DNA of 41,663 bases from a virus: UHGV virus genome UHGV-0121576; one strand, written 5' to 3'. Below the pieces are notes generated by a model. It saw only the letters and a program-made list of their open reading frames with translations, was not told where the DNA came from and searched no databases. The first letter of the stretch is position 1; every line of letters begins with the position of its first letter. The position numbers were made by a program, and so were the translations under genes. Shown piece after piece: positions 1 to 40,791 of this stretch.

Positions 1-29
1 CTTTTTCTATGTCAATTTGCTAGAAATAT

Positions 30-54
30 GCAAAGCAATAATTATTAAGCAAAG
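30..54 (+). promoter_or_regulatory. Candidate SopA operator motifs (two GCAAAG hexamers, 30-35 and 49-54) upstream of sopA; region truncated by window edge
   Basis: F plasmid sop promoter carries repeated CTTTGC SopA-binding hexamers; two reverse-orientation copies seen 19 bp apart just upstream of the sopA start and RBS (GGAG at 64-67). Confidence 0.3.
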
Positions 55-75
55 TTATAAGCTGGAGATGACAGT

Positions 76-354
76 ATGTCCTTGAAAAAGTTATTACAAG
101 ATTGTGTTACGCGCGGTCAAGAAATGACCCAAGCAATTGCTATAGCTCAATTCGGTGATGATAGTCCTGAAGCTCGGCGTATCACGCGTAGATGGGGGAT
201 AACTGAAGTAGCAGATTTAATTGGTGTAACTCCTCAAGCAATAAGAGATGCTGAGAAGAACGGGCGTTTACCTGCACCTGACTTTGAAATGAGAGGAAGA
301 GTTGAACGTCGTGCCGGTTATACCATAGATCAGCCAGCTTCTCCAAATCAATAG
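76..354 (+). CDS. sopA: SopA/ParA N-terminal segment (HTH autoregulatory domain); reading frame breaks at about 334-346 relative to the ATPase segment
   Basis: Translation (AIAIAQFGDDSPEARRITRRW...AIRDAEKNGRLP...RGRVERRAGYTIDQ) matches the N-terminus of F SopA as I recall it; ORF stops at 352-354 and the homologous sequence continues in the +1 frame. Confidence 0.7.
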   Translation: MSLKKLLQDCVTRGQEMTQAIAIAQFGDDSPEARRITRRWGITEVADLIGVTPQAIRDAEKNGRLPAPDFEMRGRVERRAGYTIDQPASPNQ

Positions 355-355
355 T

Positions 356-1258
356 ATGCGAGCTGTTTTTGGCAACCCAAACCAACGGCCACAAGATAAA
401 AACCCAGTTGTGCTTGCTGTTATGTCACACAAAGGCGGCGTTTATAAAACATCGTCTGCAGTACATCAGGCACAATGGCTAGCATTACAAGGTCATCGTG
501 TTCTTTTAGTTGAAGGTAACGATCCTCAGGGAACAGCCTCCATGTATCACGGTTATGTACCTGATTTACATATACATGCCGAGGATACTTTACTGCCATT
601 TTACTTGGGCGAACGCGATAACGCTGAATATGCTATAAAACCAACATGCTGGCCTGGACTGGACATTATTCCTAGCTGCCTAGCTTTACACCGTATAGAA
701 ACAGATCTCATGCAATATCATGCTCAGGGTAAATTGCCTCACCCTCCTCACCTGATGCTACGCGCAGCTATAGAATCAGTTTGGGATAACTACGATGTTA
801 TCGTTATAGATAGTGCTCCAAACCTCGGTACAGGAACCATTAACGTTGTTTGCGCAGCTGACGTTATCGTTGTTGCTACCCCTGCAGAATTATTTGATTA
901 CGCCTCTGTTCTACAGTTTTTCACAATGCTTCTCGATCTCCTAGAAAGCGTTGACCTAGGCGGATTTGAGCCGACCGTTCGCTTGCTTCTGACTAAATAT
1001 AGTCTCACTACAGGAAATCAATCACGATGGATGGAAGAGCAAATAAGAAATACATGGGGATCAATGGTATTACGTCAGGTTGTACGCGTTACCGATGAAG
1101 TAGGTAAAGGTCAGATAAAAATGCGAACAGTATTTGAACAAGCGGCAAACCAGCGTTCAACACTTAATGCATGGAGAAATGCCGTCTCTATATGGGACCC
1201 TGTTTGTCGAGAAATTTTTGATGATCTAATAAAACCTCGCTGGGAGAACGAAGAATGA
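356..1258 (+). CDS. sopA: SopA/ParA partition ATPase (Walker-type), C-terminal 300 aa
   Basis: KGGVYKTS Walker A motif, LLVEGNDPQGTASMYHG and IPSCLALHRIE blocks nearly identical to F SopA; stop overlaps sopB start (ATGA at 1255-1258). Confidence 0.9.
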   Translation: MRAVFGNPNQRPQDKNPVVLAVMSHKGGVYKTSSAVHQAQWLALQGHRVLLVEGNDPQGTASMYHGYVPDLHIHAEDTLLPFYLGERDNAEYAIKPTCWPGLDIIPSCLALHRIETDLMQYHAQGKLPHPPHLMLRAAIESVWDNYDVIVIDSAPNLGTGTINVVCAADVIVVATPAELFDYASVLQFFTMLLDLLESVDLGGFEPTVRLLLTKYSLTTGNQSRWMEEQIRNTWGSMVLRQVVRVTDEVGKGQIKMRTVFEQAANQRSTLNAWRNAVSIWDPVCREIFDDLIKPRWENEE

Positions 1259-2244
1259 AACAACGCTCTCTTCTAAAAAATGCTCCGGATATTAATCGCA
1301 TTATGAGTAATAATCATCATGCACCTGAACATCAGCCGGTATCACCTATGGTTGGTGATTTAAAACGTCAACTGAGTTCATTAACCGGTAATAGCATAAC
1401 TTTGCCAGTATGCGGACGTAATGTTAACTTTAAGTTAGAGACGATCCCCGCAGATAAAGTAGAAATGGCAACAATGGTATGGCTAGGTAATGAGCGTGAT
1501 CAAGATTTATTAAATGAATCTTCTCTAGCTGATTTAATTCCATCTTTTCTAACTTCTGGGCAACAAAATCCGGCTTTCGCAAGAAAAGTGTCAGGTATTG
1601 TTGAAGTAGCTGATGGTTCTCGAAGACGTAAAGCAGCCATTATAACTGGATGCGATTATCGTGTTCTTATTGGCGATTTAGATGATGAACAAATGCAATG
1701 GTTATCGCAGATAGGCAACGACTATAGACCTATCAGCGCCTATGAAAGGGGGAAAAGATACCTGCGAAGGCTCCATGAATTTGACGGTAACGTAAAATCT
1801 TTAGCTGAAGCCGAAGGCGTGGATAGAAATATTATCAGCCGATGTATTAATACAGCCGGTTTACCTAAAGATATATTGGCAATATTTAACCATCCTGGTG
1901 AGTTATCAGCCAGAGCAGGAGACGCTCTTTTTAAAGCATATCAGGGACAGGAAGCAGCCATGAAAAATGCTGCATCTCAGTTGCTGAGGATGAAAAAATC
2001 AGGTGAAAGTTTAGATGCGCAAAGAATAATACAGGCTCTTCATGATTTCATTATTGTTGAGAAAAACAATTCACATGGAGAGAAAAGGGAAAAGAAATAT
2101 GGAGACGGTGTTGTGGCGAAATATGGGAAAAATTTCACAACATTAAAATTAGATAACAGAAAAATACCATCGCACCTAATGAGTAAAATTGAATCTATTC
2201 TTGAGGAGGCGTTTGGAAATTCTTCCGATGTAAAAAATAACTAA
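1255..2244 (+). CDS. sopB: SopB/ParB centromere-binding partition protein
   Basis: ITLPVCGR, SGNERDQ, DLIPSF, ADGSRRRKAA, GNDYRP SAYERG, HPGELSARAGDAL blocks match F SopB; translationally coupled to sopA. Confidence 0.9.
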   Translation: MKQRSLLKNAPDINRIMSNNHHAPEHQPVSPMVGDLKRQLSSLTGNSITLPVCGRNVNFKLETIPADKVEMATMVWLGNERDQDLLNESSLADLIPSFLTSGQQNPAFARKVSGIVEVADGSRRRKAAIITGCDYRVLIGDLDDEQMQWLSQIGNDYRPISAYERGKRYLRRLHEFDGNVKSLAEAEGVDRNIISRCINTAGLPKDILAIFNHPGELSARAGDALFKAYQGQEAAMKNAASQLLRMKKSGESLDAQRIIQALHDFIIVEKNNSHGEKREKKYGDGVVAKYGKNFTTLKLDNRKIPSHLMSKIESILEEAFGNSSDVKNN

Positions 2245-2261
2245 TAGCAGAAAATAGAATA

Positions 2262-2297
2262 GACCCCATCAGTTATAGATGGGGTCTTAATTTTATT
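2262..2297. terminator. Bidirectional intrinsic terminator between convergent sopB and the 95-aa membrane-protein gene
   Basis: 9-bp inverted repeat GACCCCATC (2262-2270) / GATGGGGTC (2278-2286) with 7-nt loop, followed by T-rich tract. Confidence 0.5.
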
Positions 2298-2580
2298 CAA
2301 AAAATATAAATACAAGTAAACACGCCACCACCGGCACAGCAAAATCCATCAGGCTTGCTACATCCCAAGCGCGCGGATCAAAACCGCCCCACCACGGCAT
2401 ATTCATACGCTTGCCATGCCCGAACATTTCAATCCAGCGATATTCTGCCTGGGTGTGTTCACGCGCAATGAAGAACGTACAACCAGCTATCGCCCCGTAA
2501 GCCCAGTTTCCGGTAAAAAGACCAACCAGTACCTGCGCAGCCACAGCACAAAGTGCATGAAGGAAAGGTGTTATATCCAT
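2293..2580 (-). CDS. Small hydrophobic membrane protein, function unknown
   Basis: 95-aa ORF with two hydrophobic segments (AVAAQVLVGLF, VPVVACLLVFIFF); last gene after the tail-fibre cluster. Confidence 0.45.
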   Translation of the reverse strand: MDITPFLHALCAVAAQVLVGLFTGNWAYGAIAGCTFFIAREHTQAEYRWIEMFGHGKRMNMPWWGGFDPRAWDVASLMDFAVPVVACLLVFIFFE

Positions 2581-2590
2581 TACGCCTCCT

Positions 2591-3295
2591 TTATCCGATA
2601 TCGCTTCGGGAAACGGATAACAACTTTAATTCTGACTCAAGTTCATCAACTCTTTCAGTCAGCTTCTGGATATGGTGAATCAGTGGAACAACCAGACGTT
2701 CGTACATTACACCTTCGGCAACAAGGCCATTGCTGGAAATAGCTTCCGGTGCATCATCTTCGTTAGCTGGTCGCCAGTGTACAAACTGAGGGGCAATTTC
2801 TCCTACTTCCTCGGCAATCAATCCGTAGAATCCCCAGTCACGCCTGTCATTTTCGCATTGCGACCTGTACCACACAGGGCGCATCTTGAAAATGAGATCG
2901 GCGTGCTCTGAATCTATTGTCTCTACTGAATGTTTATAGCGGATAGACGATGTTGACCGCAGAACAGACGAAATTGCGGGGTCAGGATTAAGATAAAGGT
3001 TTGCCGCCGCTGTAGTCGTGGCCAAATTCCATAAATAAAACGCTTCACGACCTGTCAGTGGATAAAAATCTCCGCCATAACGACCACTTTCCAGATCGTT
3101 CACTTCCACTTTGTTTTTCAGCTTATTATCAACTTCAGTTTTTGTGTATCTGGTGCTGATATCCTGCTTTGCACTGGTCATATCAGTCTGAAGCGTTGAT
3201 ACTTTTCCGTTAATTGAGGAAATATCTTCCTTAGTTTTACTGACATCTCCCTTTAGCGTTTTGATGTCATCAGGAATTACTGTCGATGTAGCCAT
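2591..3295 (-). CDS. Tail-fibre-associated protein with C-terminal intramolecular-chaperone-like (peptidase S74-like) motif
   Basis: C-terminus DWGFYGLIAEEVGEIAPQFVHW...GLVAEGVMYERLVVPLIHHIQKLTERVDELESELKLL resembles the autoproteolytic chaperone domain of phage fibres and spikes; N-terminal half is coiled-coil-like; motif recalled from memory. Confidence 0.45.
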   Translation of the reverse strand: MATSTVIPDDIKTLKGDVSKTKEDISSINGKVSTLQTDMTSAKQDISTRYTKTEVDNKLKNKVEVNDLESGRYGGDFYPLTGREAFYLWNLATTTAAANLYLNPDPAISSVLRSTSSIRYKHSVETIDSEHADLIFKMRPVWYRSQCENDRRDWGFYGLIAEEVGEIAPQFVHWRPANEDDAPEAISSNGLVAEGVMYERLVVPLIHHIQKLTERVDELESELKLLSVSRSDIG

Positions 3296-3304
3296 TTTTC
3301 TTCC

Positions 3305-3586
3305 TCACATCCAGCCACGAAGTTGATGCTCAACAGCAACCACGTATTCATCGAATATTGACGGTGTTTTCACATCATTAATGATGCGCACGTTTACAAA
3401 ATATCCGTCTTCCTTAACACATAGCGGCTCGCCATCTTCATTCAGTTCTCCGGTTTCTTTGTACACGTTACCTATCACATCAATGAGAACATTGTTCTGC
3501 ATTACCTCGTCATCTTCATAACCAATGCTATCCATAAAGGCCGAAAAGTCGGCCTTGTTTATGAATTTGAGGGTTAAGTCTCGCAT
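3305..3586 (-). CDS. Hypothetical protein downstream of stf (possible fibre assembly factor)
   Basis: 93-aa acidic ORF; start overlaps the stf stop; no recognisable motif. Confidence 0.4.
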   Translation of the reverse strand: MRDLTLKFINKADFSAFMDSIGYEDDEVMQNNVLIDVIGNVYKETGELNEDGEPLCVKEDGYFVNVRIINDVKTPSIFDEYVVAVEHQLRGWM

Positions 3587-5799
3587 TATATTCTTTCTCC
3601 CATTTGTGCATCTGTCAGTTCCTTATGCCAGATACGTAAATTGCGCACGTGTCCAAATAAATGCCTGTTACCTGATATTGATTGACCGCCTATATTTATT
3701 GGCCCTTCTGTATAACGTTGTCTTGTGTGTTGTGATACACCAACAGCGCCAAAGTTACCGTTTATAACAGCACGCAATTCTTTCTGCTCTGTAAACTTAA
3801 ACCCAGCAATAAACCTGCGGGTTGTCCTGTTACAGTAGGCTTTATACTCGGTCTTTGTTCCTTTTCCGTTAGTTATAATTGAGCGCGCGCCTCCAGAGGT
3901 AAAACCAAAATACATATAACTTTCATCAGCAACATCCGTTGTTGCGCCAGTTATTGACACGTTAAGAAGCCTTGCTGAACCTTCACTGTTTGGCATTTTG
4001 TCCCAGTTGATATTAACTTCCATAAGAACGCTTAACGGAGGTGTTGACCAGTTCAGTCTTATTGGCATTATTACCACGTCACTAGCCCGTGTAACTGCCA
4101 CATCTGATGTAACGATAAATGATGATGCACACGATCCTTTTTCAAATTGCGGCGTAGTAAACATTATCTGATCGCCTTTTTTGATCGCCCTTTTATCTGC
4201 TCCCATTTCAAAGCGCCCATACATGCTTTTTGCTTCTGGTGATTTATATGTAAATTCGACGCGTAACCATCCGTTAGCTTCTCTGTATATGACATGATTT
4301 ACAGCATCCCCACCAGAAAAACCTAAAACATCACCAGTTTCGCAATCTATGTAGGAACCAGCTACCAGCGTGTTGCTTGTGCCGTCATCGTTAACGAAAG
4401 ATATTCTGGGTCTTAACGTTATAATACCTTCTCCATTTATCTTCTTAACCCTACAGGACAAAGTAACAGATTCATTTGCAGCAACATCAATAACCCTACT
4501 GTATCCAGTAGATATTATCGTCGCCCTTTCAGTGGTTGATGTTTCCTTTACATCGAACAAACCATATTTAAAACCATATTCATCAACCGATGTGGTTATT
4601 TCTATATTCTTGTCGTCATAATTCCATAATGAAGGATTGTTACTATTAGTAAATGTATTTGTCCTCTGACCTTCAATTAATAAACCTTCCTTTTCAAAGC
4701 GCGGCTCGTTAATTTCTGCAAAAGCAAATGAACCTGATTTGTTTATATACGTTGCAGAAGTGGAGCGAGTGAAAGATACAACCTTCTCTGATGGAAAAGT
4801 AATAACATCATCACCGATAGTGACTTTTTTATAACCTGGGGCGAAACCAGTAATCATTTCCAGTGAATCGTTAAACGGTATCCACACATCAGGCAACGGC
4901 TGCAAAACTTGTTTATACGGCTCCGCTGCCTGGCTTGCATACTCTCTGGCTGCGTCTTCACTTGCTTTAGCTGCTGTCTGGCTTGCCGCCGATGCTTGCG
5001 CCGAGTTAGCCGCCGCAGTCTCGCTCGCCTTTGCGTTGGTTTCACTGGTTTTTGCAGCTTTTTGACTGTTTGCTGATGCAGTGGCAGAAGCAGCCGCCGC
5101 ACTTGCAGAACCAGCTGCGGCACTCTCGCTTTCAGCTGCTGCATCCTGACTGCTTTTCGCCGCAGTTTCGCTGGCTTTGGCATTCGTTTCGCTGGTCTTC
5201 GCTGCCGTCTGGCTGGACTTTGCGTTGGTTTCGCTCGTCTTTGCGGCTGTCTCGCTGTTTTTCGCGTTGGTTTCTGATTTTTTGGCTGCTGTCGCGGAGT
5301 TTGCCGATGCAGTCTGCGAGGTCGCTGCCGCCTGTGCGCTGTTAGCTGCATTCGTTTCTGAGGTTTTCGCCGCGTTCTTCGATGAAGCCGCTGCAGTTTC
5401 GGATTTCTTTGCCGCCGCTGCGCTCTGAGAGGCGGCTTCGGCGTTGCGTGCCGCTTCTTCCACCATTGCCTCAAAACGGCGCAATGCCTCCGGCATGACA
5501 TCATCTTCCGTCATGGCACCGAGAAAATCATTCAGCGTACCTGGTCTGGAACCTTCATAGACGGTAATGGTCCCGGCATGTGAAGGCGGAAAACCTTCAA
5601 CCAGCAGGGTGACGCTGTACTGGCCATACTCAACATCCATGCTGTAACGTCCGGCTTCATCCGGATTTTCAGAAGCCACCGTGTTCACCAGTACCGTGGT
5701 GCTGTTACGCTTTGCCTTCAGTTGAATAGTGCAGTTCTGTATTGGTTTTCCCGCACCATCTTTCAGCACACCTGAGATTTTTACTGCTGCCATATCCAC
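3586..5799 (-). CDS. stf: Side tail fibre protein
   Basis: N-terminus VKISGVLKDGAGKPIQNCTIQLKAKRNSTT...GRYSMDVEYGQYSV matches lambda Stf; long Ala/Ser/Thr collagen-like repeat region; C-terminal 400 aa unlike lambda. Confidence 0.85.
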   Translation of the reverse strand: MDMAAVKISGVLKDGAGKPIQNCTIQLKAKRNSTTVLVNTVASENPDEAGRYSMDVEYGQYSVTLLVEGFPPSHAGTITVYEGSRPGTLNDFLGAMTEDDVMPEALRRFEAMVEEAARNAEAASQSAAAAKKSETAAASSKNAAKTSETNAANSAQAAATSQTASANSATAAKKSETNAKNSETAAKTSETNAKSSQTAAKTSETNAKASETAAKSSQDAAAESESAAAGSASAAAASATASANSQKAAKTSETNAKASETAAANSAQASAASQTAAKASEDAAREYASQAAEPYKQVLQPLPDVWIPFNDSLEMITGFAPGYKKVTIGDDVITFPSEKVVSFTRSTSATYINKSGSFAFAEINEPRFEKEGLLIEGQRTNTFTNSNNPSLWNYDDKNIEITTSVDEYGFKYGLFDVKETSTTERATIISTGYSRVIDVAANESVTLSCRVKKINGEGIITLRPRISFVNDDGTSNTLVAGSYIDCETGDVLGFSGGDAVNHVIYREANGWLRVEFTYKSPEAKSMYGRFEMGADKRAIKKGDQIMFTTPQFEKGSCASSFIVTSDVAVTRASDVVIMPIRLNWSTPPLSVLMEVNINWDKMPNSEGSARLLNVSITGATTDVADESYMYFGFTSGGARSIITNGKGTKTEYKAYCNRTTRRFIAGFKFTEQKELRAVINGNFGAVGVSQHTRQRYTEGPINIGGQSISGNRHLFGHVRNLRIWHKELTDAQMGERI
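4930..5470 (-). repeat. Intragenic tandem repeats in stf encoding a collagen-like AAKTSETNAK-type motif
   Basis: Visibly periodic DNA (gcggtctcgctggctttggcattcgtttcgctggtcttcgc...) and repeated peptide units; produces long spurious ORFs in other frames. Confidence 0.6.
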
Positions 5800-5802
5800 T
5801 CC

Positions 5803-17544: not shown

Positions 17545-17898
17545 TCAGCGGCGACGGTTAACGGCAGGCGGTACGCCCCGCCCAAGCCAGAGATGACAGC
17601 TTCCGCCATCATCCGGCGTAACCCGATCTACCCAGAAGTTTTCCTCACCGATGGTCAGCGTGTCTCCACGCCGCAGCTGCCGCACATCATCAGTCCGGAC
17701 AAACAGGGACGGGCTGGAGCCTTCAACGCGCACGCCCTGTCCGGCATAGCTGATATTTTCAGGGTCATCAAAAACACCACGTATTACTGCGCCGGACTGC
17801 TCACCGGATGTAATGGTGGCTGACGTTCCCATGTACCCGCGTATCGTTTCATCGGCGCGGGCAATGGCAGCATCGAACAGGTTATCGAAATCAGCCAC
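17545..17898 (-). CDS. FII: Head-tail connector protein FII
   Basis: 117 aa, synteny. Confidence 0.85.
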   Translation of the reverse strand: MADFDNLFDAAIARADETIRGYMGTSATITSGEQSGAVIRGVFDDPENISYAGQGVRVEGSSPSLFVRTDDVRQLRRGDTLTIGEENFWVDRVTPDDGGSCHLWLGRGVPPAVNRRR

Positions 17899-17909
17899 AG
17901 CGCCTCCCG

Positions 17910-18308
17910 TTATTGCATTCTGGCCAGGCTACGTTCTGTCATTTCGGCTGCCACACCGGCAGAGACACGAAACGCCGTTCCAGGCAGCACAAATGCCACA
18001 GGTTCATCCCGGATGGCGTGAAGTGCATCGGTGTGCAGCGTCACCAGTGCCACGACCGTGACCAGATCAGCCGCATCCTGAATCACGGTATCCGGCTGCG
18101 CTGATACAACCTCATTTTCATGCCCGGTCAGCACATTTTCCGGGCTGAGAGGGGTGTCCTGACCGGCAGTGTCATCCGTGTCATCAAGCTCTTCTTCCAG
18201 CTCTGCCACACGGAGCGCCAGTTCTTCTTTCGTCCCCGTCAGGCTGACATCACGGTTCAGTTGCTCACCCAGCGACCGGAGACGGGCAATCAGTTCATCT
18301 TTCGTCAT
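17910..18308 (-). CDS. FI: DNA-packaging / head completion protein FI
   Basis: From internal Met (MTKDELIARLRSLGEQL) 132 aa, matching lambda FI. Confidence 0.8.
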   Translation of the reverse strand: MTKDELIARLRSLGEQLNRDVSLTGTKEELALRVAELEEELDDTDDTAGQDTPLSPENVLTGHENEVVSAQPDTVIQDAADLVTVVALVTLHTDALHAIRDEPVAFVLPGTAFRVSAGVAAEMTERSLARMQ

Positions 18309-18349: not shown

Positions 18350-19375
18350 TTACGCCAGTTGTACAGACACGAATTCATCAGGGTCAGCCAGCAGCATCAG
18401 CGGTGCTGACTGAATCATGGTGAACTCACGCGCCGGATCGCCGGTGGTCACCCAGTTTTTCGGGTAACGGGCAGAGGCGTTAATGCCTTCGCGCTGTGCG
18501 TCCGCATCCTGAATGCAGCCATAGGTGCGCAGACCGCGTGCCTGAGTGTTCCCCAGCACCATCGTGTTGTCCGGCAGGAAGTTCTTTTTGACGCCGTTTT
18601 CCACGTACTGTCCGGAATACACGACGATGGCCACATCGCCATACATTCCCTTATAAGACACCGCTTTGCCCAGGTCTTTTACCGCTGTCTCCAGCTCGGA
18701 ATGAGAGCCGCGACGGGTATCCAGCTTCTCCTTGACGGCCTTGAAGGAACGGAACAGCGCCCAGCCTTTCGGATCAAACACGATGATATTCACCACGCCG
18801 CTGGCGTTCAGCGCGTAGGCTTCGATATCGTCGGTCGGGTCATACGTGGACTTGTCACGCTTGCTCCACTCCGTGCCGCCGGACTGCGTGATGTTATTCG
18901 CCGCACTGCGGCCCATATCCACCTCAACCGGATCGAAGGCTTCACCGGTCATGGTGTATTTGCCCTTAAGCACGGCAGAAACTGCCTGCATCTCTTCCAC
19001 CTGGGCAATGGCCAGCTCTTCGTCACGCATGTTCTGCATGATGATGCGACGGCGACGGTAAGCCGGGTCCGCCAGATTCTGCGGATCTTCATCCGGCAGG
19101 CGACGCAGGGTCATCTGCGGATTCACTTCATGCTTGGGTTTGACATATCCCGGCGTAAATTCAGAGGTGGAGCCGCCACGGGAGCGGATAACCTCACCGG
19201 AAACAATCGGCGAAACGTACAGCGCCATGTTTACCAGTCCCGGAATTTGTGAGAGATAGACTTTCTCCGTGGTGAAGGGATAGCTTTCACGGAAAAAGAG
19301 ACGCAGAAACAGCGGATCAAACTTAAATTTCTGCTCATTTGCCGCCAGCAGTTGGGCGGTTGTGTACATCGACAT
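18350..19375 (-). CDS. E: Major capsid protein E
   Basis: From internal Met (MSMYTTAQLLAANEQKFKFDPLF) 341 aa, matching lambda E. Confidence 0.9.
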   Translation of the reverse strand: MSMYTTAQLLAANEQKFKFDPLFLRLFFRESYPFTTEKVYLSQIPGLVNMALYVSPIVSGEVIRSRGGSTSEFTPGYVKPKHEVNPQMTLRRLPDEDPQNLADPAYRRRRIIMQNMRDEELAIAQVEEMQAVSAVLKGKYTMTGEAFDPVEVDMGRSAANNITQSGGTEWSKRDKSTYDPTDDIEAYALNASGVVNIIVFDPKGWALFRSFKAVKEKLDTRRGSHSELETAVKDLGKAVSYKGMYGDVAIVVYSGQYVENGVKKNFLPDNTMVLGNTQARGLRTYGCIQDADAQREGINASARYPKNWVTTGDPAREFTMIQSAPLMLLADPDEFVSVQLA

Positions 19376-19430: not shown

Positions 19431-19769
19431 TTAAACGATGCTGATTGCCGTTCCGGCAAACGCGGTCCGTTTTTTCGTCTCGTCGCTGGCAGCCTCCGGC
19501 CAGAGCACATCCTCATAACGGAACGTGCCGGACTTGTAGAACGTCAGCGCGGTGCTGGTCTGGTCAGCAGCAACCGCCAGAATGCCAACGGCAGCACCGT
19601 CGGTGGTGCCATCCCACGCAACCAGCTTACGGGTGGAGGTGTCCAGCATCAGCGGGGTCATTGCAGGCGCTTTCGCACTCAATCCGCCGGGCGCGGTTGC
19701 GGTATGAGCCGGGTCACTGTTGCCCAGCGGCTGGTAATGGGTAAAGGTTTCTTTGCTCGTCATAAACAT
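19431..19769 (-). CDS. D: Head decoration protein D
   Basis: [11 protein letters not shown]...GTAISIV is near-identical to lambda gpD as recalled. Confidence 0.9.
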
Positions 19770-19772
19770 CCC

Positions 19773-21072
19773 TTACACTGGTGTGTTCAGCAAATCGTTA
19801 ACGGCATCAGATGCCGGGTTACCTGCAGCCAGCGGTGCCGGTGCACCCTGCATCAGACGATCCAGCGCAGTGTCACTGCGCGCCTGTGCACTCTGTGGTG
19901 CTGCGGCCAGAATGCGGCGGGCCGTTTCCACGGTCATACCGGGGGTTTCTGCCAGCACGCGGGCCTGTTCTTCGCGTCCGTGAGCCTCCTCACAGTTGAG
20001 GATCCCCATAATGCGGCTGTTTTCTGCCGCAACCGCTGCGGTGATCTGCGCGTTCACGTCCGGCTGCGCCGCGCTGGCGTTTTCGCCCTCCGTCGCTGGC
20101 ACCACGTCAGTAACGTCAGCCTGCGAAGCAGTGGCTGAAACAGTTGTTGATTGAGTCTCTTTGGTCATTCGCCCTCCTGAGAGACGGGATTTACGTGCAT
20201 CCAGTGCATCACGCATGACGGTGATCGCATCGGTGCTGTTAACAAGTTCATCAGCCAGTCCGGCATCAATGGCCTCCTGACCGCTGTACACTGCAGCCTC
20301 GGTATCCAGCACAGCCTGCACAGACAGGCCGGTATATGCCGACACCTTCTGCGCAAACATCTGGCGGGTTGCGTCCATCCGGGACTGCAGTGTCTCCCGG
20401 ACGTCATCCGGAAGATGGCTGTAGGGATTGCCATCCACCTTATGGCTGCCGCTGTAAATCAGCGTGATTTCCACGCCCTGTTTCTCCAGCGCAGCACCGT
20501 AATTACTGTGAGCCATCATGACGCCGATAGAGCCTGTCCGGGCGGTCTGCGTGACCAGACGCCGGGAGGCGGCACTGGCAAGCAGCTGACCTGCACTGCA
20601 GTTCATGTCGTTGGCCAGCGCCCATACCGGTTTTATGTCACGCACACGGGCGATGATGTCAGCGCAGTCAAATGCCCCCGCCACCATCCCGCCGGGCGTG
20701 TCCATATCGAGCAGAATGCCGTCCACCATCGGATCGCTGGCAGCCTGTTGCAGACGGGCGATAATGCCGTTGTAACCGGTCATCCCCGAATACGGCTGCA
20801 GCGCCCGCGTCCGGCTGACCAGCGTGCCGGACACCGGCAGCACGGCGATGCCGTTCATGATCTGATAACTGCGGGCCTGTCGTGGTCCGTCATCATCACC
20901 GGATAACGCCAGCGTCGCGGGTGCCTCTCCGGCAGCCAGGCTGTCACCGGACACCGCATCCGTCAGACGGCTGATCCCAAGCTGGCCTGCAAGCGCACAA
21001 AAGAAAACCCGCGCATAGGCGGGTTCAAGCATCAGCGGCTCATTAAAGGCCATGCTGGCAATATGCGGGAGA

Positions 21073-21092: not shown

Positions 21093-24773
<3,681 letters not shown>

Positions 24774-25520: not shown

Positions 25521-25580
25521 GATCGCCGGAAAGGACCCGCAAAGGTGAGAATAATTATCACTTGCATTAATATCCAGCTT

Positions 25581-25749
25581 CTTCCACCATCGCACCGGAC
25601 GGGCGACTATGAGGGACAAAACCGCGCACCATAAACGCGGTAAAAACCCGGTGTGCATCGTTTTTGATTATTTCCGCACACTCGCGCAGAGGAGTTCCCC
25701 GTCGGGCTACGGTCATGGTTAATGCGGAAATACGGCGACGATGCAGCGC
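25581..25749. repeat. Direct repeat copy A (169 bp; last 113 bp identical to copy B)
   Basis: Seen directly: 25637-25749 is identical to 26587-26699; the 5-prime 56 bp are about 80 percent identical. Confidence 0.9.
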
Positions 25750-26489: not shown

Positions 26490-26507
26490 GTGCGACCACG
26501 GTCGCAC
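26490..26507. promoter_or_regulatory. sopC-like centromere palindrome GTGCGACCACGGTCGCAC (site 1)
   Basis: 8-bp inverted arms around a central AC; core GACCACGGTC is identical to the F sopC repeat core as recalled. Confidence 0.6.
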
Positions 26508-26530
26508 GCTCCTGAATACATGCCCTGTTT

Positions 26531-26699
26531 CTTCCACCCTCGCACAGGACTGGCGAGCATGAGGGACAAACCCGCGAATCATTAGCGCGGTAAAAACCCG
26601 GTGTGCATCGTTTTTGATTATTTCCGCACACTCGCGCAGAGGAGTTCCCCGTCGGGCTACGGTCATGGTTAATGCGGAAATACGGCGACGATGCAGCGC
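26531..26699. repeat. Direct repeat copy B (169 bp), bracketed by palindrome sites 1 and 2
   Basis: See copy A; exactly 950 bp offset. Confidence 0.9.
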
Positions 26700-26709
26700 G
26701 GTATTTAAT

Positions 26710-26727
26710 GTGCGACCACGGTCGCAC
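26710..26727. promoter_or_regulatory. sopC-like centromere palindrome GTGCGACCACGGTCGCAC (site 2)
   Basis: Identical to site 1, 220 bp away, same orientation. Confidence 0.6.
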
Positions 26728-29739: not shown

Positions 29740-29757
29740 GTGCGACCGTGGTCGCAC
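29740..29757. promoter_or_regulatory. sopC-like centromere palindrome GTGCGACCGTGGTCGCAC (site 3, opposite orientation)
   Basis: Same arms as sites 1 and 2 with central GT; flanking CT and AG extend the symmetry to 22 bp. Confidence 0.6.
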
Positions 29758-30390: not shown

Positions 30391-30702
30391 ATGTTTAACG
30401 TGATAACCCACCCTGCAGCACTGGATGAACTGCTTGAACTACCAGATGATTTGCGAGGTCGCATGACCAGATTAATTGAGCGACTGGAGAAGGAAGGCAA
30501 CAAACTGAAGATGCCCCATAGCCGTGTAATAGGTGGAGGGCTTTTTGAACTACGAGTAGGGGATAAAAACATCGCAAGAACGCTGTACGCCTACGCGACT
30601 GGTAACGAAATTTATCTATTGCATGCATTTGTAAAAAAGACACAGAAAACACCGGTGAAGGCTATCGAAATCGCCAGAACTCGCCTGAAGGAGATGAACT
30701 GA
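30391..30702 (+). CDS. Type II toxin, RelE/ParE superfamily, Gp49-like (HigB-like)
   Basis: LFELRV...ARTLYAYATGNEIYLLHAFVKKTQKTP motif typical of the phage Gp49-like toxin family (named after N15 gp49) as recalled; followed by an overlapping HTH gene. Confidence 0.7.
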   Translation: MFNVITHPAALDELLELPDDLRGRMTRLIERLEKEGNKLKMPHSRVIGGGLFELRVGDKNIARTLYAYATGNEIYLLHAFVKKTQKTPVKAIEIARTRLKEMN

Positions 30703-30989
30703 TGAAAGCGAAAGGCATCCCGTTTAACGAAGTAAAAGAAAAACTTCTCAACACTCCAGAAGCCATCAAAGGATATGAAGAGGCCGATAAAGAGCTGGAG
30801 ATGGTCGAAATGTTATACGAAATGAGGGAAAGAGCAGGTTTAACGAAGTCAGCTCTGGCTGAACGAATGGGATTGCGCCCGTCAGCTATCAGCCGCCTGG
30901 AAAGCAATCCTTTAGGGGCAAGCATGAAAACTTTATCAAAATATGCCCAAGCATGCGGTGCAACGATTAATATTAATGCCGTCTATTGA
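30702..30989 (+). CDS. HTH XRE-family antitoxin (HigA-like)
   Basis: HTH LTKSALAERMGLRPSAISRLE; start overlaps the toxin stop (ATGA). Confidence 0.7.
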   Translation: MKAKGIPFNEVKEKLLNTPEAIKGYEEADKELEMVEMLYEMRERAGLTKSALAERMGLRPSAISRLESNPLGASMKTLSKYAQACGATININAVY

Positions 30990-31251: not shown

Positions 31252-31493
31252 TTAATTAAAAAAGGTTATTTGATACTGTATAAAATTACAGGGTAAAACT
31301 CAAATTTTATAGCCAACTTTCAATGGATTAACTGGTTAAATATCTTTGTAGTCCGATACTTATGTTCCCTTCCTACGCCTCGCCCAACCACTTTCAAAAG
31401 CCCATCACCACCATCAGAAAAGCTCTTTTCGCTCCGTTTTCGTATCATTTCAAAAAGCAATGCCTTTTTGTCCATTTATCCCTCCGTGACCAG

Positions 31494-31820
31494 TCACACT
31501 TTGAGCGCAAGTTTCAGCCTCGTGGTTGTAAGGTGGCATGAGCCTTCACCATCAAAAATGCATTCTGAAACAGGCATTTTTTGACCACATCGCGGACAAG
31601 TAGTAGATAGCTGTTTCTGCAACTCCTTATAGTTTTTCCTGATCAGCAGTCCGATGACTTCGTTCTCTGAATATGGAACTCGCCCTGGTCTACGCAATAC
31701 ACAAATTTCCCCCAACATACGTAACTCGTCAGGTTCCAGAATCCAGTCACGTCTTGATGTTCCTTCCTTCTTCAACCGTTCCCTGCGTCTTCTTTGCCGT
31801 TCTGCCGGTGTCAGCGCCAT
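31494..31820 (-). CDS. Hypothetical protein with N-terminal arginine-rich motif and C-terminal CxxC...CxxxxC cluster
   Basis: MALTPAERQRRRRERLKKEG then CPRCGQKMPVSECIFDGEGSCH; last gene of a five-gene overlapping cluster. Confidence 0.45.
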   Translation of the reverse strand: MALTPAERQRRRRERLKKEGTSRRDWILEPDELRMLGEICVLRRPGRVPYSENEVIGLLIRKNYKELQKQLSTTCPRCGQKMPVSECIFDGEGSCHLTTTRLKLALKV

Positions 31821-31835
31821 AAATCCTCCTAAAAA

Positions 31836-32597
31836 TTACTTAACCCAATTAACTACACCGCCAGCGGCCACAACCGCTTTTTCACAGTCACGCTCATATC
31901 TCAAAGGTTGAAATACACCATCAATAAAATATTTATCTCCACCACATGCTGCTGGAAGTGAAACAGAAAACTGAATACGACCATCATCTGGCATTTGCTC
32001 ACTACAGCTTATCCAACCATCCGGAGTTACCGGATAGTTGCCCGATAGCGCATTACGCAATCGCTCCAGCTTCACGTATTCCTGAACCCTGTTTCCGTCG
32101 CATGCCTGAAGCCATTGCGCAGCCTTTTGCGCATCAGTGTGAAAGGCACAAGTGCGACCGTCATCAAATTGCATTTCGTAGAGGTCAGCAACTTGTTCAA
32201 ACTGCGTGTGTTGTGACTTGTAAGTTTGGCTTACAGGTTCGGCACCATGAAGCATGGCGGCGCGGCAGGAGTTCCAGCCTCTCACCTCTGCAATAGCGGC
32301 AACAGCATCGACCGCGTACATTTTAAGAGGGTTAGGCATTGTTTTTTCTTCAGGTACTACTGGCACTGGAGGGGCGGCATAAACAGGAATAACGTCCGCT
32401 TGCTCTTTATTGCTTTCATCCGTTAAAGCCCAGAATAATTTCCCGGCCGGATGTTTGAAAATATAAGCAACTGGATCTGCTTCCAGCGATGCCAGTGCAA
32501 TTTCATAAGCACGGCGCTCAATATTGTCTCGAACGTCCAAGCTGCCTATGCGCTCTTTGATTTCTTTAATCAGTTCTTTGTCGGTAAACGTGATCAT
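31836..32597 (-). CDS. Hypothetical phage protein (about 253 aa from the internal Met MITFTDKELIKEIK)
   Basis: Start overlaps the upstream stop (TAATG); no confident family assignment. Confidence 0.45.
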   Translation of the reverse strand: MITFTDKELIKEIKERIGSLDVRDNIERRAYEIALASLEADPVAYIFKHPAGKLFWALTDESNKEQADVIPVYAAPPVPVVPEEKTMPNPLKMYAVDAVAAIAEVRGWNSCRAAMLHGAEPVSQTYKSQHTQFEQVADLYEMQFDDGRTCAFHTDAQKAAQWLQACDGNRVQEYVKLERLRNALSGNYPVTPDGWISCSEQMPDDGRIQFSVSLPAACGGDKYFIDGVFQPLRYERDCEKAVVAAGGVVNWVK

Positions 32598-33175
32598 TAT
32601 GCTCCAGCCTCCGGTGCTTTCGGCATTACTGCCCAATGAGTGATATTGACGTTTTCAAGATCCCCGACCTGAAATGTCCACTGCCAGTCTCCGGTTTCTT
32701 TTTGTCCCCAGGTGTACCAGAGAGAACGCCAGCCAATCAGCCAGCCTTCTCCGTTAGCATCGAATAACAAAACACTTTCATTTGCAGGTGGCAGTTCAGC
32801 TGACACTGGTGTTACTTTGTTTCCCTGTTCTACAATTCGCTTTCTTGCAGCTTCCAGCTCAATAGACAATTTTTCCAACTGCTCTTTATGCTTTTTGTAT
32901 TCCTGATATGCGTGCCAGGACTGTCCTTTGCGCACGCTTTCAGTAATATCAGCAACCTGCTCTGGAGTTAGCGTAGTCAGTTGCTGGGCTGGAAAAATCA
33001 TTACTTGTCCGGAATCCCAGTCAAAACCAGCCTGAATTGACTGAACATCAACTGATGGTGTTGAACCAATGCTACCTGGTGAATGAACAACAATCGTTAC
33101 ATTCATATCGCAACGCTGGCTGTGTTTGTTGGACAAGATACGATTCACCAACTCAGAAAATTTGGAAAATTTCAT
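32597..33175 (-). CDS. Hypothetical phage protein (192 aa, Trp-rich C-terminal domain)
   Basis: C-terminal GWLIGWRSLWYTWGQKETGDWQW; overlapping start/stop with neighbours. Confidence 0.45.
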   Translation of the reverse strand: MKFSKFSELVNRILSNKHSQRCDMNVTIVVHSPGSIGSTPSVDVQSIQAGFDWDSGQVMIFPAQQLTTLTPEQVADITESVRKGQSWHAYQEYKKHKEQLEKLSIELEAARKRIVEQGNKVTPVSAELPPANESVLLFDANGEGWLIGWRSLWYTWGQKETGDWQWTFQVGDLENVNITHWAVMPKAPEAGA

Positions 33176-33462
33176 GCGGATTCCCCTTTCTCTGCTTTCT
33201 CCTGTCGGAACATCATGATCATCAGATCACCTTTGGTTGCCACTCTGACTGTTGTGCCTGGTTCAATGCTGTTAAGTTCAAATGCGTCATAGAACGCTTC
33301 TAATGCCTTCTGGCGTAGCTCCTGTTTGCGCCGTTTTTTCCACTGTTTTAGAAAAACAGTGGCCGCCCACTTCCCTGCGCTGAACATGATGTAAAAATAA
33401 CCAAACAGGGCCAGACCAGTATTCAGAACCGTATCGACCGTCATTGTTGTGTCGATATTCAC
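33172..33462 (-). CDS. Small single-pass membrane protein
   Basis: Hydrophobic segment LALFGYFYIMFSAGKWAATVF followed by basic stretch. Confidence 0.45.
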   Translation of the reverse strand: MNIDTTMTVDTVLNTGLALFGYFYIMFSAGKWAATVFLKQWKKRRKQELRQKALEAFYDAFELNSIEPGTTVRVATKGDLMIMMFRQEKAEKGESA

Positions 33463-34707: not shown

Positions 34708-35008
34708 TTTCTTGTGCGACCACGGTCGCACCCTCTCTGATTTCCAAGTAACGCTTAATCCAAAGATTTTCTATATGCTTATTACCTGGCTGATTTGATA
34801 AATACCAATCGGCAATTACAGACTGCTTATTACTATCTGGTCGTGTCCTGTAACCACAAGTTGGACACCAGATAACATATTCATTTCTTACCCCCGAATA
34901 CCTTAATTCTGGCTTCGACGGTTTCCTGAACATAACTTGTTTACAAAGGCAGAATGGCACTTCCTGCCCGATGGCGTTTGATGATTTCACTGCGCTTCTC
35001 CGCCGCAT
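34688..35008 (-). CDS. Small Cys-rich zinc-ribbon protein (possibly Lar-like)
   Basis: CLC and WCPTCG pairs; overlaps the end of the upstream ORF, so the start is uncertain. Confidence 0.35.
   Translation of the reverse strand: MRRRSAVKSSNAIGQEVPFCLCKQVMFRKPSKPELRYSGVRNEYVIWCPTCGYRTRPDSNKQSVIADWYLSNQPGNKHIENLWIKRYLEIREGATVVAQENENNAI
34714..34731. promoter_or_regulatory. sopC-like centromere palindrome GTGCGACCACGGTCGCAC (site 4)
   Basis: Identical to sites 1 and 2; lies between the Q-like/zinc-ribbon genes and the downstream operon. Confidence 0.6.
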
Positions 35009-36795: not shown

Positions 36796-39700
36796 ATGAC
36801 ATTAAACGATTTCTATGCGGATCGCTTTGGCAGCGATCCGTTCTCGCTAATTGAAGCAGCACGGGATGAACTAACCGAGCTGGCACAGATGGCTGGTATC
36901 AACTGGTCTGCCTGTTCCGACAACATCCAACTCAACCCTCGCGGGGGTGTTGAGCGTTACTCTTCATACAATAAAACATCCCCAGAAGCTCTCGAAAAGA
37001 GCCTCAAAGGACGCGTAGAAATTTACTCCCGGCTGGAACACAGCAAAGGGATTGATTACCCGTTCATTAACTTCGTCCATAAAGGCAGCGATGCTGGCTC
37101 ATGGAGCGGTTTCTCCTTCCTGTTTTCTGAATATCGCCGTGAGCAACAACGGAATAATGCGACCGTGGTCGCACAACCGGAAGAAGAACGGGCAAGAATA
37201 GAACGTCAGGCCGAAGCACGTCGTCGCCGTGAAGAACAAAAACGAATTAATGACCTGAAAAACAACCAAATGGACCATGAACGTTTGCTGGGATGGCTGG
37301 CATTCCACAGTGCTTGGGAACATGCTCCTGCAGAAGACGGCTCATGGCCATATGCGATTAAAAAAGGTATTCGTGACGTTTTTAATTCGTGTGATGTGCG
37401 TCGCGTGACCAGTCACGACAGCGCAAAATGGAGCAGGGGGCCAACCACGTATATGGCTATCCCTCTGGCTCACCTGGACGGTCGTTACGATGGTCGTATT
37501 GTTGGTTGGCAGCGAATCGACAAACAAGGTGGAAAATACCAGACCAGCGCCGTAACCAGCGGCGATTTCGTCGGTGCCTGCTTTGTTATCGGTGAGCTGA
37601 AAGGGGCGCAAAACATCGCTGTTACAGAAGGTTTTGCTACTGGTGCATCCATCTGGCTTGCCACGAAAAAAGATAAACGCTTTGACGCTGTGGTTGTCGC
37701 TGTATCCGCTAACAACATGGTTCATGTTGTGGAACAACTGGTAAACATGTACCCGGCGGCAAAAATCACCTGCGCACTGGATAATGACCGGAAATCAGCT
37801 ACAGAAGGAAAAGGGAATACCGGCCTGCGGACTGGCTATGAAATCTTATCGAAATTCAACGATGTCCGCTGCGTCTATCCAACTTTTGAAGACGATCCGC
37901 AAATGGAGTGCAGTGACTTCAACGACCTGCACAAACTACGTGGACTTCGTGAAACAGCACGTCAACTGTTTGCAACTGCAAACCGCCTGAAAACTGGCAC
38001 TGATTTGCTATCTCTGACGCTCAACCGCCTGAAGACAATTAAGCGGGATAACCGTCGTACTTTTGCCAAAGAGCTGCTGAGAGCAGTGGATATTGGCATG
38101 CTAACCTGTCCGGTTCCTAACAGTCCGTCAGACTTATTTAACATGTTCTGCATCGTCCTGCGTGAAATTGGGCTGGAAAATATCTATCGCGCTACGGTAA
38201 AAGACCACATTGCCCGTCGCCTGAATAAAAAGTGCCGTATTGCCCAGGCTCCGCGCTCATTCAGCGAACGAATAACTGATCCCAATAAACGTCCTCAACA
38301 TATCACCTATAAGCGTTTTGAAACTTCGGTAATGACCGATGACGTCCTGAAGTATGTGCAATCACTACAGGGGATAGTCATCGTTCGTGCTGGTATGGGT
38401 TCCGGCAAATCTACTGGATTGTTACGACCTTTAATGCATAGCTCAGAACGTGGTATCTCTGTTGCTCACCGTGTTTCCCTTATTGGTGGCCTGTGGGAAA
38501 TGATGACAGAAGGAAAAGGTGTAAAAGCCGATATCCTGCACTATCAGGACCCTGGCTATCAGGAAATGGCTCCATACGCCAGTAAACTGACCATCTGCAT
38601 AAACTCGATTGTTAAAAACTGCTGGCAACCATTGATGCGCCAGCACGACTATTTTGGCTTTGACGAGGCCACGCAAGGGCTACGTGCCGTTCTTTCCGGT
38701 CGGGCTATGGAAAACCCGGTGGCTGTATTCAATACGTTAATTGACGCGCTGGCCAGAACGGAACAACACCCAATAATGGTGGATGCTGATGCGAACGATC
38801 TGCTGGTTGACCTGGCTGAACTGGCTATGAAACGCCGTGAAGAACTAGGTTTACCGGCATGGCTGCAGATCCACGTAATTGAATTACCTGTTGATGTTCG
38901 CAACCGCGAAACAGGTGAGCCAATCCGGGTTTTTTATACAGAAAAAGATCGCATTATGACCGAGGTGGTGAAAGCTGTATCGAATGGCGAAAAAATCATG
39001 TTGGCCACCGACAGCTCCACCTTTGCAGAAGATGTGACCGCCACCCTGAGAATGCATTTTCCTGGTAAGAAATTTCTGTGTGTAAACCAGAAAAACAAAC
39101 CAGAGCCAGAAGTTGAAGCATTTACCAATCAACCGAAAAAGATGGTCAAAAAATACGACGGCCTGATTTATAGCCCGTCTATTTCATCCGGTGTGTCGAT
39201 TGAGCAAAAACATTTTGACCGTCATTTCGGCATGTTCTGTGGTGAAGTTGTACCCAGCGACGCAGTGCAAATGCTACGCCGCGACCGTACAGCAAAAGAA
39301 TTTATTATCGGCTTTGATAAAGCTCGCGCAAAACGTGAAACTGACCCGCAAAAAATAGAACGAGCATTCGCCCAGGCATTGCTTGCTACCGCAGGCATGA
39401 ACGGTGAACTGACGGATGTCGTTTTCGATGGCGACCGTATATCAATGGGGGTGGCCAATACCGACTTTACCAGGATGAAAATTAAAGCAGCCGCAATTGA
39501 AGCGTCTGCGCGTAACGACTACGCCAGCAACATGATCTGCATCATGCACAGCGACGGTTATAAGGTATCGCCGCTGGCCACCGATTATGCTGCGAATGAT
39601 ATCGGTAAAGATCTGCGTAAAGAAGCGCGGGATATTGTGTGGGAACAGACACTGGATCTGCATCTCAATACAGAAACTCCACAAGAATCAGAGCGTGAAG

Positions 39701-40791
39701 AACTGCTAAAAAAACGCGCGCTGACGCTTGAAGAACAAGCAAAACTTGTCCGCTGGGATATTGAGAACGAACTGAAACTACCGGTTGAAGAAGGCACGCT
39801 GAAATTCTATTTCGATGGTGCTCGAGACAAAGTTCGCCGCTATGAAACAATGCTTTTAGATGAGGTAACAGCTCGTCGTTACGACCGGGAAGAAGCAGCC
39901 ATCAATTTTACCTACGCATACCGTCAGGCGGGACAGTGGCAATATTTTGTAGTGACCGCGATGACTCGCGAGCAGGCTGATGATGTCTTTAAAACTAAAT
40001 TCCCTGGAATAATCGACTACAAGGTAAAAGCTACTCCTACTGTTGAAGTCGGGGCGCGCGGTTTCTATGCGCTTAAATCAGCAACTCTCCGGCAGTACTT
40101 TATCGACTGCGGTATCAACCCTGAGACTATGACCGGCGAGGCGACTCAGGAGCGTCTCAAATTCGCTCGAGATAACCTCATGACAGCCGAACGCCGTGAC
40201 CTGTTGAATAACGTTCTGCACATTGGTGGTTTTATGACGCCAAAAGGGAAGCCTAAAGTGCCGGAAGCGTTGTTTAAAAACATTTGCGACTCTCTTGGCC
40301 TTAAAACAGGTAAACGTCGCGGCAGAGACGGCGATAAGCGTCCAACCTTGCGTTTTGTTGAGCCTGAATCAGCGGCATTTATGCTGGATATTCTTGTTCA
40401 GCGTCAGAAAGATGGCCTAACCCTAAAAACGCGTAAAGCCGAGAAGACAGCCATCGAAATGGATCGCGATTTGGATCTCAATATATATATGGATGATAAA
40501 ACGCGATCCACAAACGAGCAGGTTCAAAACGCCCCTCATTCAGTAATTTCTGAGGCTTTGGCCGTATTGCCGGTGGCTGTTCCTGAGTCCTGGGCGATGA
40601 GTGCGCTTTCCGGTGAGGAGCTGGCCACTATGTCATCATGGTCATCAGCCAGCATAGCTATGACGTTTGCATCTCTGTATCTCACAGAGTTCATGGATCA
40701 CTTGTCCAGCAATGAATTGCGGCGGTTACGAGAATACATTACCGGGAATAGCTCATGCAGCTACGAAGAGCAGGGAGCTTTCTATGGGTAA
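36796..40791 (+). CDS. repA: RepA replication initiator, multidomain primase-helicase
   Basis: 1331 aa (N15 RepA is about 1324 aa as recalled); P-loop GMGSGKST; position downstream of the CI-like repressor. Confidence 0.85.
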   Translation: MTLNDFYADRFGSDPFSLIEAARDELTELAQMAGINWSACSDNIQLNPRGGVERYSSYNKTSPEALEKSLKGRVEIYSRLEHSKGIDYPFINFVHKGSDAGSWSGFSFLFSEYRREQQRNNATVVAQPEEERARIERQAEARRRREEQKRINDLKNNQMDHERLLGWLAFHSAWEHAPAEDGSWPYAIKKGIRDVFNSCDVRRVTSHDSAKWSRGPTTYMAIPLAHLDGRYDGRIVGWQRIDKQGGKYQTSAVTSGDFVGACFVIGELKGAQNIAVTEGFATGASIWLATKKDKRFDAVVVAVSANNMVHVVEQLVNMYPAAKITCALDNDRKSATEGKGNTGLRTGYEILSKFNDVRCVYPTFEDDPQMECSDFNDLHKLRGLRETARQLFATANRLKTGTDLLSLTLNRLKTIKRDNRRTFAKELLRAVDIGMLTCPVPNSPSDLFNMFCIVLREIGLENIYRATVKDHIARRLNKKCRIAQAPRSFSERITDPNKRPQHITYKRFETSVMTDDVLKYVQSLQGIVIVRAGMGSGKSTGLLRPLMHSSERGISVAHRVSLIGGLWEMMTEGKGVKADILHYQDPGYQEMAPYASKLTICINSIVKNCWQPLMRQHDYFGFDEATQGLRAVLSGRAMENPVAVFNTLIDALARTEQHPIMVDADANDLLVDLAELAMKRREELGLPAWLQIHVIELPVDVRNRETGEPIRVFYTEKDRIMTEVVKAVSNGEKIMLATDSSTFAEDVTATLRMHFPGKKFLCVNQKNKPEPEVEAFTNQPKKMVKKYDGLIYSPSISSGVSIEQKHFDRHFGMFCGEVVPSDAVQMLRRDRTAKEFIIGFDKARAKRETDPQKIERAFAQALLATAGMNGELTDVVFDGDRISMGVANTDFTRMKIKAAAIEASARNDYASNMICIMHSDGYKVSPLATDYAANDIGKDLRKEARDIVWEQTLDLHLNTETPQESEREELLKKRALTLEEQAKLVRWDIENELKLPVEEGTLKFYFDGARDKVRRYETMLLDEVTARRYDREEAAINFTYAYRQAGQWQYFVVTAMTREQADDVFKTKFPGIIDYKVKATPTVEVGARGFYALKSATLRQYFIDCGINPETMTGEATQERLKFARDNLMTAERRDLLNNVLHIGGFMTPKGKPKVPEALFKNICDSLGLKTGKRRGRDGDKRPTLRFVEPESAAFMLDILVQRQKDGLTLKTRKAEKTAIEMDRDLDLNIYMDDKTRSTNEQVQNAPHSVISEALAVLPVAVPESWAMSALSGEELATMSSWSSASIAMTFASLYLTEFMDHLSSNELRRLREYITGNSSCSYEEQGAFYG
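37157..37174. promoter_or_regulatory. sopC-like centromere palindrome ATGCGACCGTGGTCGCAC (site 5, inside repA)
   Basis: 17 of 18 match to site 3; 7-bp perfect arms; lies within the repA coding sequence. Confidence 0.55.

Follow-up and report, generated by a model that had tools for sequence, protein, structure and literature searches.

A 13-nt insertion interrupts the partition gene sopA in a metagenomic copy of an N15-like phage-plasmid

The partition gene sopA of the phage-plasmid described here is interrupted by a 13-nt insertion. The window, meaning the whole stretch of DNA analyzed (41,663 nt), belongs by its sequence with the N15-like linear phage-plasmids. The insertion is probably private to this copy, recent and sporadic, and probably inactivates sopA, giving a pseudogene-type null or hypomorphic allele in an otherwise intact element. 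The original prediction had offered a sequencing error or a SopA made as two separate polypeptides. An ordinary recent inactivating mutation was absent from it and is the most likely option.

The interrupted sopA gene

The 5' fragment of sopA (ORF1, 76-354, plus strand, frame 1) encodes 92 aa, made up of native SopA residues 1-85 followed by QPASPNQ and a TAG stop. The 3' fragment (ORF2, 356-1258, plus strand, frame 2, +1) encodes 300 aa corresponding to native residues 90-389. The two meet at TAG-T-ATG (352-358, plus strand), where the premature stop of ORF1 (352-354) is followed one base on by ATG356, the native internal Met90 codon. Residues 1-85 of ORF1 and the whole of ORF2 matched the 389-aa SopA/ParA of Escherichia phage PhiR46_1 at 100% identity (its residues 1-85 and 90-389, respectively). 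The frame 2 match to that protein spanned residues 86-389, also at 100% identity. The open part of frame 2 begins at 329, and ATG356 is its first start codon. The sopA span in the window is 1183 nt, which is the 1170 nt of the relatives plus 13. Since the sequences were compared directly, chance plays no part in this result. The original prediction had the coordinates and frames of both ORFs exactly right.

Weak Pfam matches to MerR and HTH_3 were found in ORF1 (residues 42-69). ORF2 matched AAA_31 at 7e-26 and CbiA at 3e-14, as a ParA-type P-loop ATPase. The earlier assignment of an HTH fragment and an ATPase fragment was borne out by these matches. The native part of ORF1 contains helix 1, the HTH and the wing, and its seven added residues are out-of-frame junk. 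The deviant Walker A motif of type Ia ParA proteins (KGGxxK[S/T]) is present in ORF2 as KGGVYKT at nt 431-451. Type Ia ParA proteins carry HTH and ATPase on one polypeptide of ~388 aa. This was the case in all relatives but not in the window, where the two are encoded in different frames with a TAG between them.

The break was placed using alignments to P7 ParA and Soj together with published domain limits. The intact SopA of a relative matched the P7 ParA structure 3EZ9 (5e-22) and Soj (1e-17). Structure 3EZ9 aligned over the break point (SopA 51-328). Soj structures aligned to SopA residues 108-299, and since ORF2 begins at residue 90 it holds the whole Soj-like ATPase core. Published limits for ParA_F put the end of the HTH at E60 and the wing tip at R75, with predicted hinges at residues 30 and 105 (PMC8465637). 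The window SopA has E60 and R75 at positions equivalent to the HTH end and wing tip of ParA_F. From these matches and the hinge at ~105, the break after residue 85 maps inside the winged-HTH (wHTH) domain (~30-105), just past the wing and ~20 residues before the ATPase hinge.

The 13-nt insertion

By multiple alignment and BLAST the insertion occupies 13 of the 15 nt at 331-345 (plus strand), for example GCCAGCTTCTCCA at 333-345. Flanking bases are shared, so 331-343, 332-344 and 333-345 are equivalent placements, the last being the choice made by BLAST. Its context is GATCA-GCCAGCTTCTCCA-AATC, and it sits at a GATC within the native tandem ATCAA-ATCAA. Alignment with four relatives gave one 13-nt gap with otherwise invariant flanks, in agreement with the prediction that a 13-nt insertion breaks the frame. 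The predicted size was correct and the predicted position, about 334-346, was off by 1-3 nt. Reading through the insert in frame 1 gives Q-P-A-S-P-N-Q-stop.

Within the window the 13 nt were not a tandem duplication and had neither a target-site duplication nor a nearby template. A transposon footprint or target-site duplication was rejected as the origin, as neither flank is duplicated. An adapter origin was also rejected, as the insert is not known to resemble any of the common Illumina adapter sequences. The only other matches to the insert in the window were the 12-mer ATCAGCCAGCTT at 23532 and the 11-mer CCAGCTTCTCC at 18721, which is near chance. The 12-mer match lies in the terminase gene and four of its 12 nt are native flank bases.

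One 10-mer, ATCAGCCAGC, spans the left insertion junction (329) and was also present at 13477, 23532, 32736, 36257 and 40644. These are five extra copies in the window against ~0.08 expected for a random 10-mer. The excess probably reflects E. coli-type oligonucleotide or codon bias (CTG GCT GAT on the other strand).

Expression signals, sopB and centromere sites

[quoted passage not shown] They include ATTTGC at 15-20, GCAAAG at 30-35 and 49-54, and the Shine-Dalgarno sequence GGAG at 64-67, 8 nt before ATG76. No Shine-Dalgarno sequence was found ahead of ATG356 (upstream sequence ...cttctccaaatcaatagt). CTTTGC is the operator unit of ParA_F and N15, and ParA_F binds its operator as dimers at inverted hexamers 28 bp apart (PMC8465637). 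The CTTTGC/GCAAAG hexamer operator typical of type Ia ParA is thus represented in the window. PhiR46_1 has two CTTTGC hexamers just upstream of window position 1 which are lost at the contig start. The -35 region of the sop promoter is probably cut off there as well.

The sopB gene (1255-2244, plus strand) directly follows sopA, giving the type Ia operon order with parA first. It is intact, encodes 329 aa and is 100% identical to the PhiR46_1 ParB, with a SoPB_HTH match at 1.6e-23. Its ATG overlaps the sopA TGA (ATGA), so translation of the two genes is probably coupled. A bidirectional terminator-like hairpin was predicted after sopB at 2261-2287.

Five perfect dispersed palindromes of the form GTGCGACC(AC/GT)GGTCGCAC were found by motif scan. 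The palindrome GTGCGACCACGGTCGCAC is present at 26490-26507, 26710-26727 and 34714-34731. The variant GTGCGACCGTGGTCGCAC is at 29740-29757 and the variant TGCGACCGTGGTCGCA is at 37158-37173, inside repA. Their core is that of the N15 IR1/IR4 oligonucleotides and is shared with the SopB-binding centromere sites IR1-IR4, of which N15 has four (PMC7205306). Dispersed SopB-binding palindromes (GTGCGACCNNGGTCGCAC) thus stand in place of a tandem sopC array, as in the N15-type Sop system. A motif search of the window for the F-type sopC motif GGGACCNNGGTCCC gave no match.

Comparison with relatives and database scans

The closest records were Escherichia phage PhiR46_1 (PV340565, with telL/telR annotated), pEC21Z144-46K (NZ_CP101226) and p13TMH22-2 (NZ_CP019258, protein WP_001555445). 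DNA identity to the closest relatives was 99.1-99.3% across 2.6 kb and the 13-nt insertion was the sole length difference. All three records annotate a single sopA/parA of 1170 nt and 389 aa. Every relative examined carries one uninterrupted sopA/parA of 387-389 aa. The original prediction had allowed that relatives might share the two-ORF layout as a conserved feature, and no relative does.

The insertion was present in 0/29 plasmid records and in 0/16 complete E. coli records (megablast of 270-410; best identity 128/141, which corresponds to the 13 missing nt). Nor was it present in any of ~38 fetched loci spanning the site, drawn from the 99% and 90% allele clades. A 32-nt exact pattern for the junction was absent from genome and viral contig collections. 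A gapped pattern found no insertion of 1-30 nt at the site in genome, viral and metagenome collections. As a positive control, the native junction was recovered from 14 viral and 19 metagenome contigs. The exact intact 389-aa SopA was found on 996 contigs and the split ORF1 on two, namely ERZ1755983 and its 3.2-kb duplicate. Outside the window, calls of the 300-aa ORF came only from the duplicate assembly and from a single contig that is cut off at this point. Logan contig L044, which encodes the exact ORF2, was rejected as a second split. It comes from a different strain, and with its first base at window position 354 it carries no information on the insertion.

A protein search with ORF1 found no conserved stand-alone HTH ORF, only heterogeneous frameshift and truncation products. 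These SopA N-terminal fragments are ~90-145 aa long with out-of-frame tails, and their native part ends at scattered residues (~62-95). Examples are P0002, P0007, P0015, P0017, P0021, P0022, P0032 and P0035. Several lie on long contigs, which identifies them as internal frameshifts. None has the 13-nt insertion or the QPASPNQ tail. The scatter of the break points indicates that frameshifted sopA is sporadic and recurrent, with no conserved split design. Many of the fragments (P0002, P0007, P0015, P0018, P0021, P0022, P0032 and P0035) are 107-108 aa long. They break at different residues and share one out-of-frame stop near residue 107-108, and the window ORF1 stops at 92. Fragment P0022 was found on 27 contigs, Klebsiella pneumoniae among them. 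The recurrent frameshifted copies may include some real inherited pseudogene alleles.

The rest of the genome

Matches in the window were found for 57 of the 62 PhiR46_1 CDS, and of these 57 sopA alone was clearly frame-broken. The second frame-broken case is a doubtful 58-aa hypothetical ORF in a repeated segment. Including neither sopA nor sopB, ~55 genes are intact, and sopB is intact as well. The RepA-type primase/replication protein (36796-40788) is 99.8% identical to its PhiR46_1 counterpart. The cB-type repressor is 100% identical to that of PhiR46_1, and the lambda-like head and tail proteins from terminase through J are 99-100% identical. Since SopB, the five centromere palindromes and ~55 other genes are intact, the lesion appears recent. 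With sopA the only part hit, partition evidently still worked in the very recent past.

The CDS at the protelomerase position of PhiR46_1 had no tblastn match in the window. Measured against PhiR46_1, the contig stops before reaching either telomere, 393 nt from telR and ~3.4 kb from telL, so the protelomerase region lies outside the window.

A segment of ~170 nt is duplicated in the window (25579-25749 and 26529-26699). The copies lie on either side of a variable cassette near cos and correspond to PhiR46_1 17821-17991 and 19604-19775. The 58-aa hypothetical ORF of the PhiR46_1 repeat, which may not be a real gene, is broken in the window by a 1-nt deletion at 25691. The tail-fibre region (2591-5800) is mosaic. 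Its tail-fibre-domain protein (234 aa in the window, with a weak Peptidase_S74 match) and side tail fibre share only 68-88% identity with PhiR46_1, against 99-100% for the neighbouring genes. At 31300-33200 the early-region accessory genes (the ea22-like gene and small hypothetical ones) have been replaced or have diverged strongly from PhiR46_1. Protein identity there is 49-82%, as is typical of lambdoid mosaicism. A RelE/ParE-type toxin and HTH antitoxin pair lies at 30391-30986, named after the pEC21Z144-46K annotation. The two proteins are 100% and 95% identical to those of PhiR46_1.

Source contig and coverage

The window is ENA metagenome contig ERZ1755983 NODE_307 from a low-coverage metagenome (coverage 3.784633, a k-mer coverage of ~3.8). 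The insertion site lies 330 nt from one end of this contig. A second assembly, ERZ28581382 (HEQI17-1_SAMEA4431883_METAG-scaffold_5230, 3156 nt), also carries the insertion and is base-for-base identical to window positions 1-3156. Its identical first nucleotide and identity over 3156 nt suggest that both assemblies were made from the same reads. It is therefore probably not an independent confirmation of the insertion.

Both deposited assemblies end at window position 1, inside the sop operator. In relatives an AT-rich stretch of TGTGTTCT-type repeats adjoins this point. A contig end inside the operator suggests that coverage was exhausted there, and local depth at the insertion site may be 1-3 reads. 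At its other end the ERZ28581382 scaffold breaks at 3156, within the mosaic tail-fibre region.

Interpretation of the split

De Bruijn assembly cannot thread a novel 13-nt insert without reads containing it. A 13-nt insertion that is neither repetitive nor a homopolymer is also atypical of short-read base-calling or assembler error. Both points favour a real molecule. The other way to read the data is that sopA is biologically intact and that one chimeric or aberrant read, arising in sequencing or library preparation, was taken up at a thinly covered contig end. This is a possible explanation, though a clearly less probable one. It fits the coverage of 3.78, an allele found nowhere else in the collections scanned and a site 330 nt from an end which stops inside the sop operator, where coverage had apparently gone. 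With ~3.8 coverage, a site at the contig end and reads probably shared with ERZ28581382, which has the same start base and is identical over 3156 nt, a single aberrant fragment could set the consensus. It sits poorly with an insert of this length and composition between perfect flanks, which the assembler could not invent without reads having it. Conserved genes elsewhere on the contig are free of scattered frameshifts, and the insert is not known to resemble common Illumina adapters. A real and recent inactivating insertion is therefore preferred over an artefact.

The original prediction also raised a functional split, with a truncated ATPase and a separate autoregulatory peptide. In such a case a 92-aa repressor or modulator and a 300-aa ATPase would be produced by termination-reinitiation, giving a partition system like type Ib (Soj/ParF). 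ORF2 does keep the whole Soj-equivalent core with its Walker A motif, sopB and the centromeres are intact, and a stop and start 1 nt apart have a geometry compatible with reinitiation. That geometry is automatic from the native AATAGTATG after an upstream +1 insertion. As the native ...AAT AGT ATG... yields TAG-T-ATG after any nearby upstream 3n+1 insertion, the junction is not evidence of design. ATG356 has no Shine-Dalgarno sequence, the break falls within the wHTH and not at the hinge near residue 105, and the seven new residues are out-of-frame junk. Operator binding requires ParA dimers. The arrangement is conserved in no relative, and the intact protein is present on 996 contigs. The type Ia ParA2 of V. 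cholerae still forms nucleotide- and DNA-dependent filaments in vitro without helix 1 (PMC8397727). A truncated ATPase is thus not necessarily inert, an observation that is silent on partition in vivo. The functional split was not upheld, given a private allele, no RBS for ORF2 and a break inside the wHTH, and production of two working polypeptides is considered improbable. More doubtful again is the fuller proposal that a natural type Ia ParA is split between a free winged-HTH peptide and a reinitiated Soj-like ATPase, and that the pair still supports partition with altered autoregulation.

Programmed +1 ribosomal frameshifting was also considered. Both frames are open over 23 nt (329-351), and a +1 shift there would restore full-length SopA with a 4-aa insert. 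No known slippery pattern, +1 or -1, is present in the overlap (GAT CAG CCA GCT TCT CCA AAT CAA TAG), there is no SD-like stimulator upstream, and the two-frame layout expected of a recoding site occurs in no relative. Recoding is the least credible of these explanations.

Expected consequences of the break

If the preferred reading of a real inactivating insertion is correct, the 13 nt would shift the frame past residue 85, within the winged-HTH domain of a type Ia ParA. Full-length SopA would not be made. A 92-aa peptide with helix 1, HTH and wing would be made in its place, lacking the dimerising ATPase body. As ParA_F binds its operator as dimers, this peptide is expected to repress the sop promoter poorly and P_sop would be derepressed. 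The dimerisation of P1 ParA reportedly involves helix 1. In E. coli, termination-reinitiation is inefficient without a Shine-Dalgarno sequence. Since ORF2 has none, the ATPase part (90-389) would be made only by weak reinitiation at TAG-T-ATG. The domain anatomy and the missing RBS together point to loss of function, and the allele would be null or strongly hypomorphic for active partition and for sop autorepression. As the sopB start overlaps the sopA stop, coupled expression of sopB may also be disturbed.

Prophages of N15 defective in sop are said to be unstable. The copy number of the plasmid, lytic propagation and the RelE/ParE-type addiction module, alone or together, may allow the lesion to be tolerated for a short time. 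An addiction module of this type could mask a partition defect temporarily.

Discussion

The sop locus of the window resembles those of plasmid F (SopA, ParA_F) and N15 in its sopA-sopB order, ATGA overlap, KGGVYKT motif and CTTTGC/GCAAAG hexamers, and that of N15 in its dispersed centromere palindromes (GTGCGACCNNGGTCGCAC). The F and N15 SopA proteins are type Ia ATPases with an N-terminal winged-HTH autorepressor domain. Unlike these, the window coding sequence is interrupted after residue 85 and no single polypeptide of 388/389 aa is encoded. The similarity to PhiR46_1, pEC21Z144-46K and p13TMH22-2 is closer still. Both SopA halves and SopB show 100% protein identity to theirs and the flanking genes are the same, but in these three the 13 nt are missing and a single 389-aa protein is encoded.

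ORF2 alone has the ATPase-core architecture without HTH that is seen in type Ib ParA proteins (Soj, ParF and delta of pSM19035). Type Ib systems have a small ParA without HTH, and autoregulation is carried out by the ParB-like partner. The window differs in that ORF2 lacks its own RBS and promoter and is not a stand-alone gene, and the arrangement is not conserved. It also differs in its partner, as SopB is a type Ia ParB. SopB is not known to repress P_sop alone.

The window sopA represents an isolated case of a well-known gene that was either damaged or mis-sequenced, and the arrangement is not a new one. The finding is an ordinary one, and the intact form of this phage-plasmid lineage has already been sequenced many times. 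For annotation, the locus should be labelled as a disrupted sopA (pseudogene/frameshift) and not as two genes. If the mutation is real, the prophage-plasmid should segregate poorly and mis-regulate sopB, and it would be a small natural example of a phage-plasmid losing plasmid functions.
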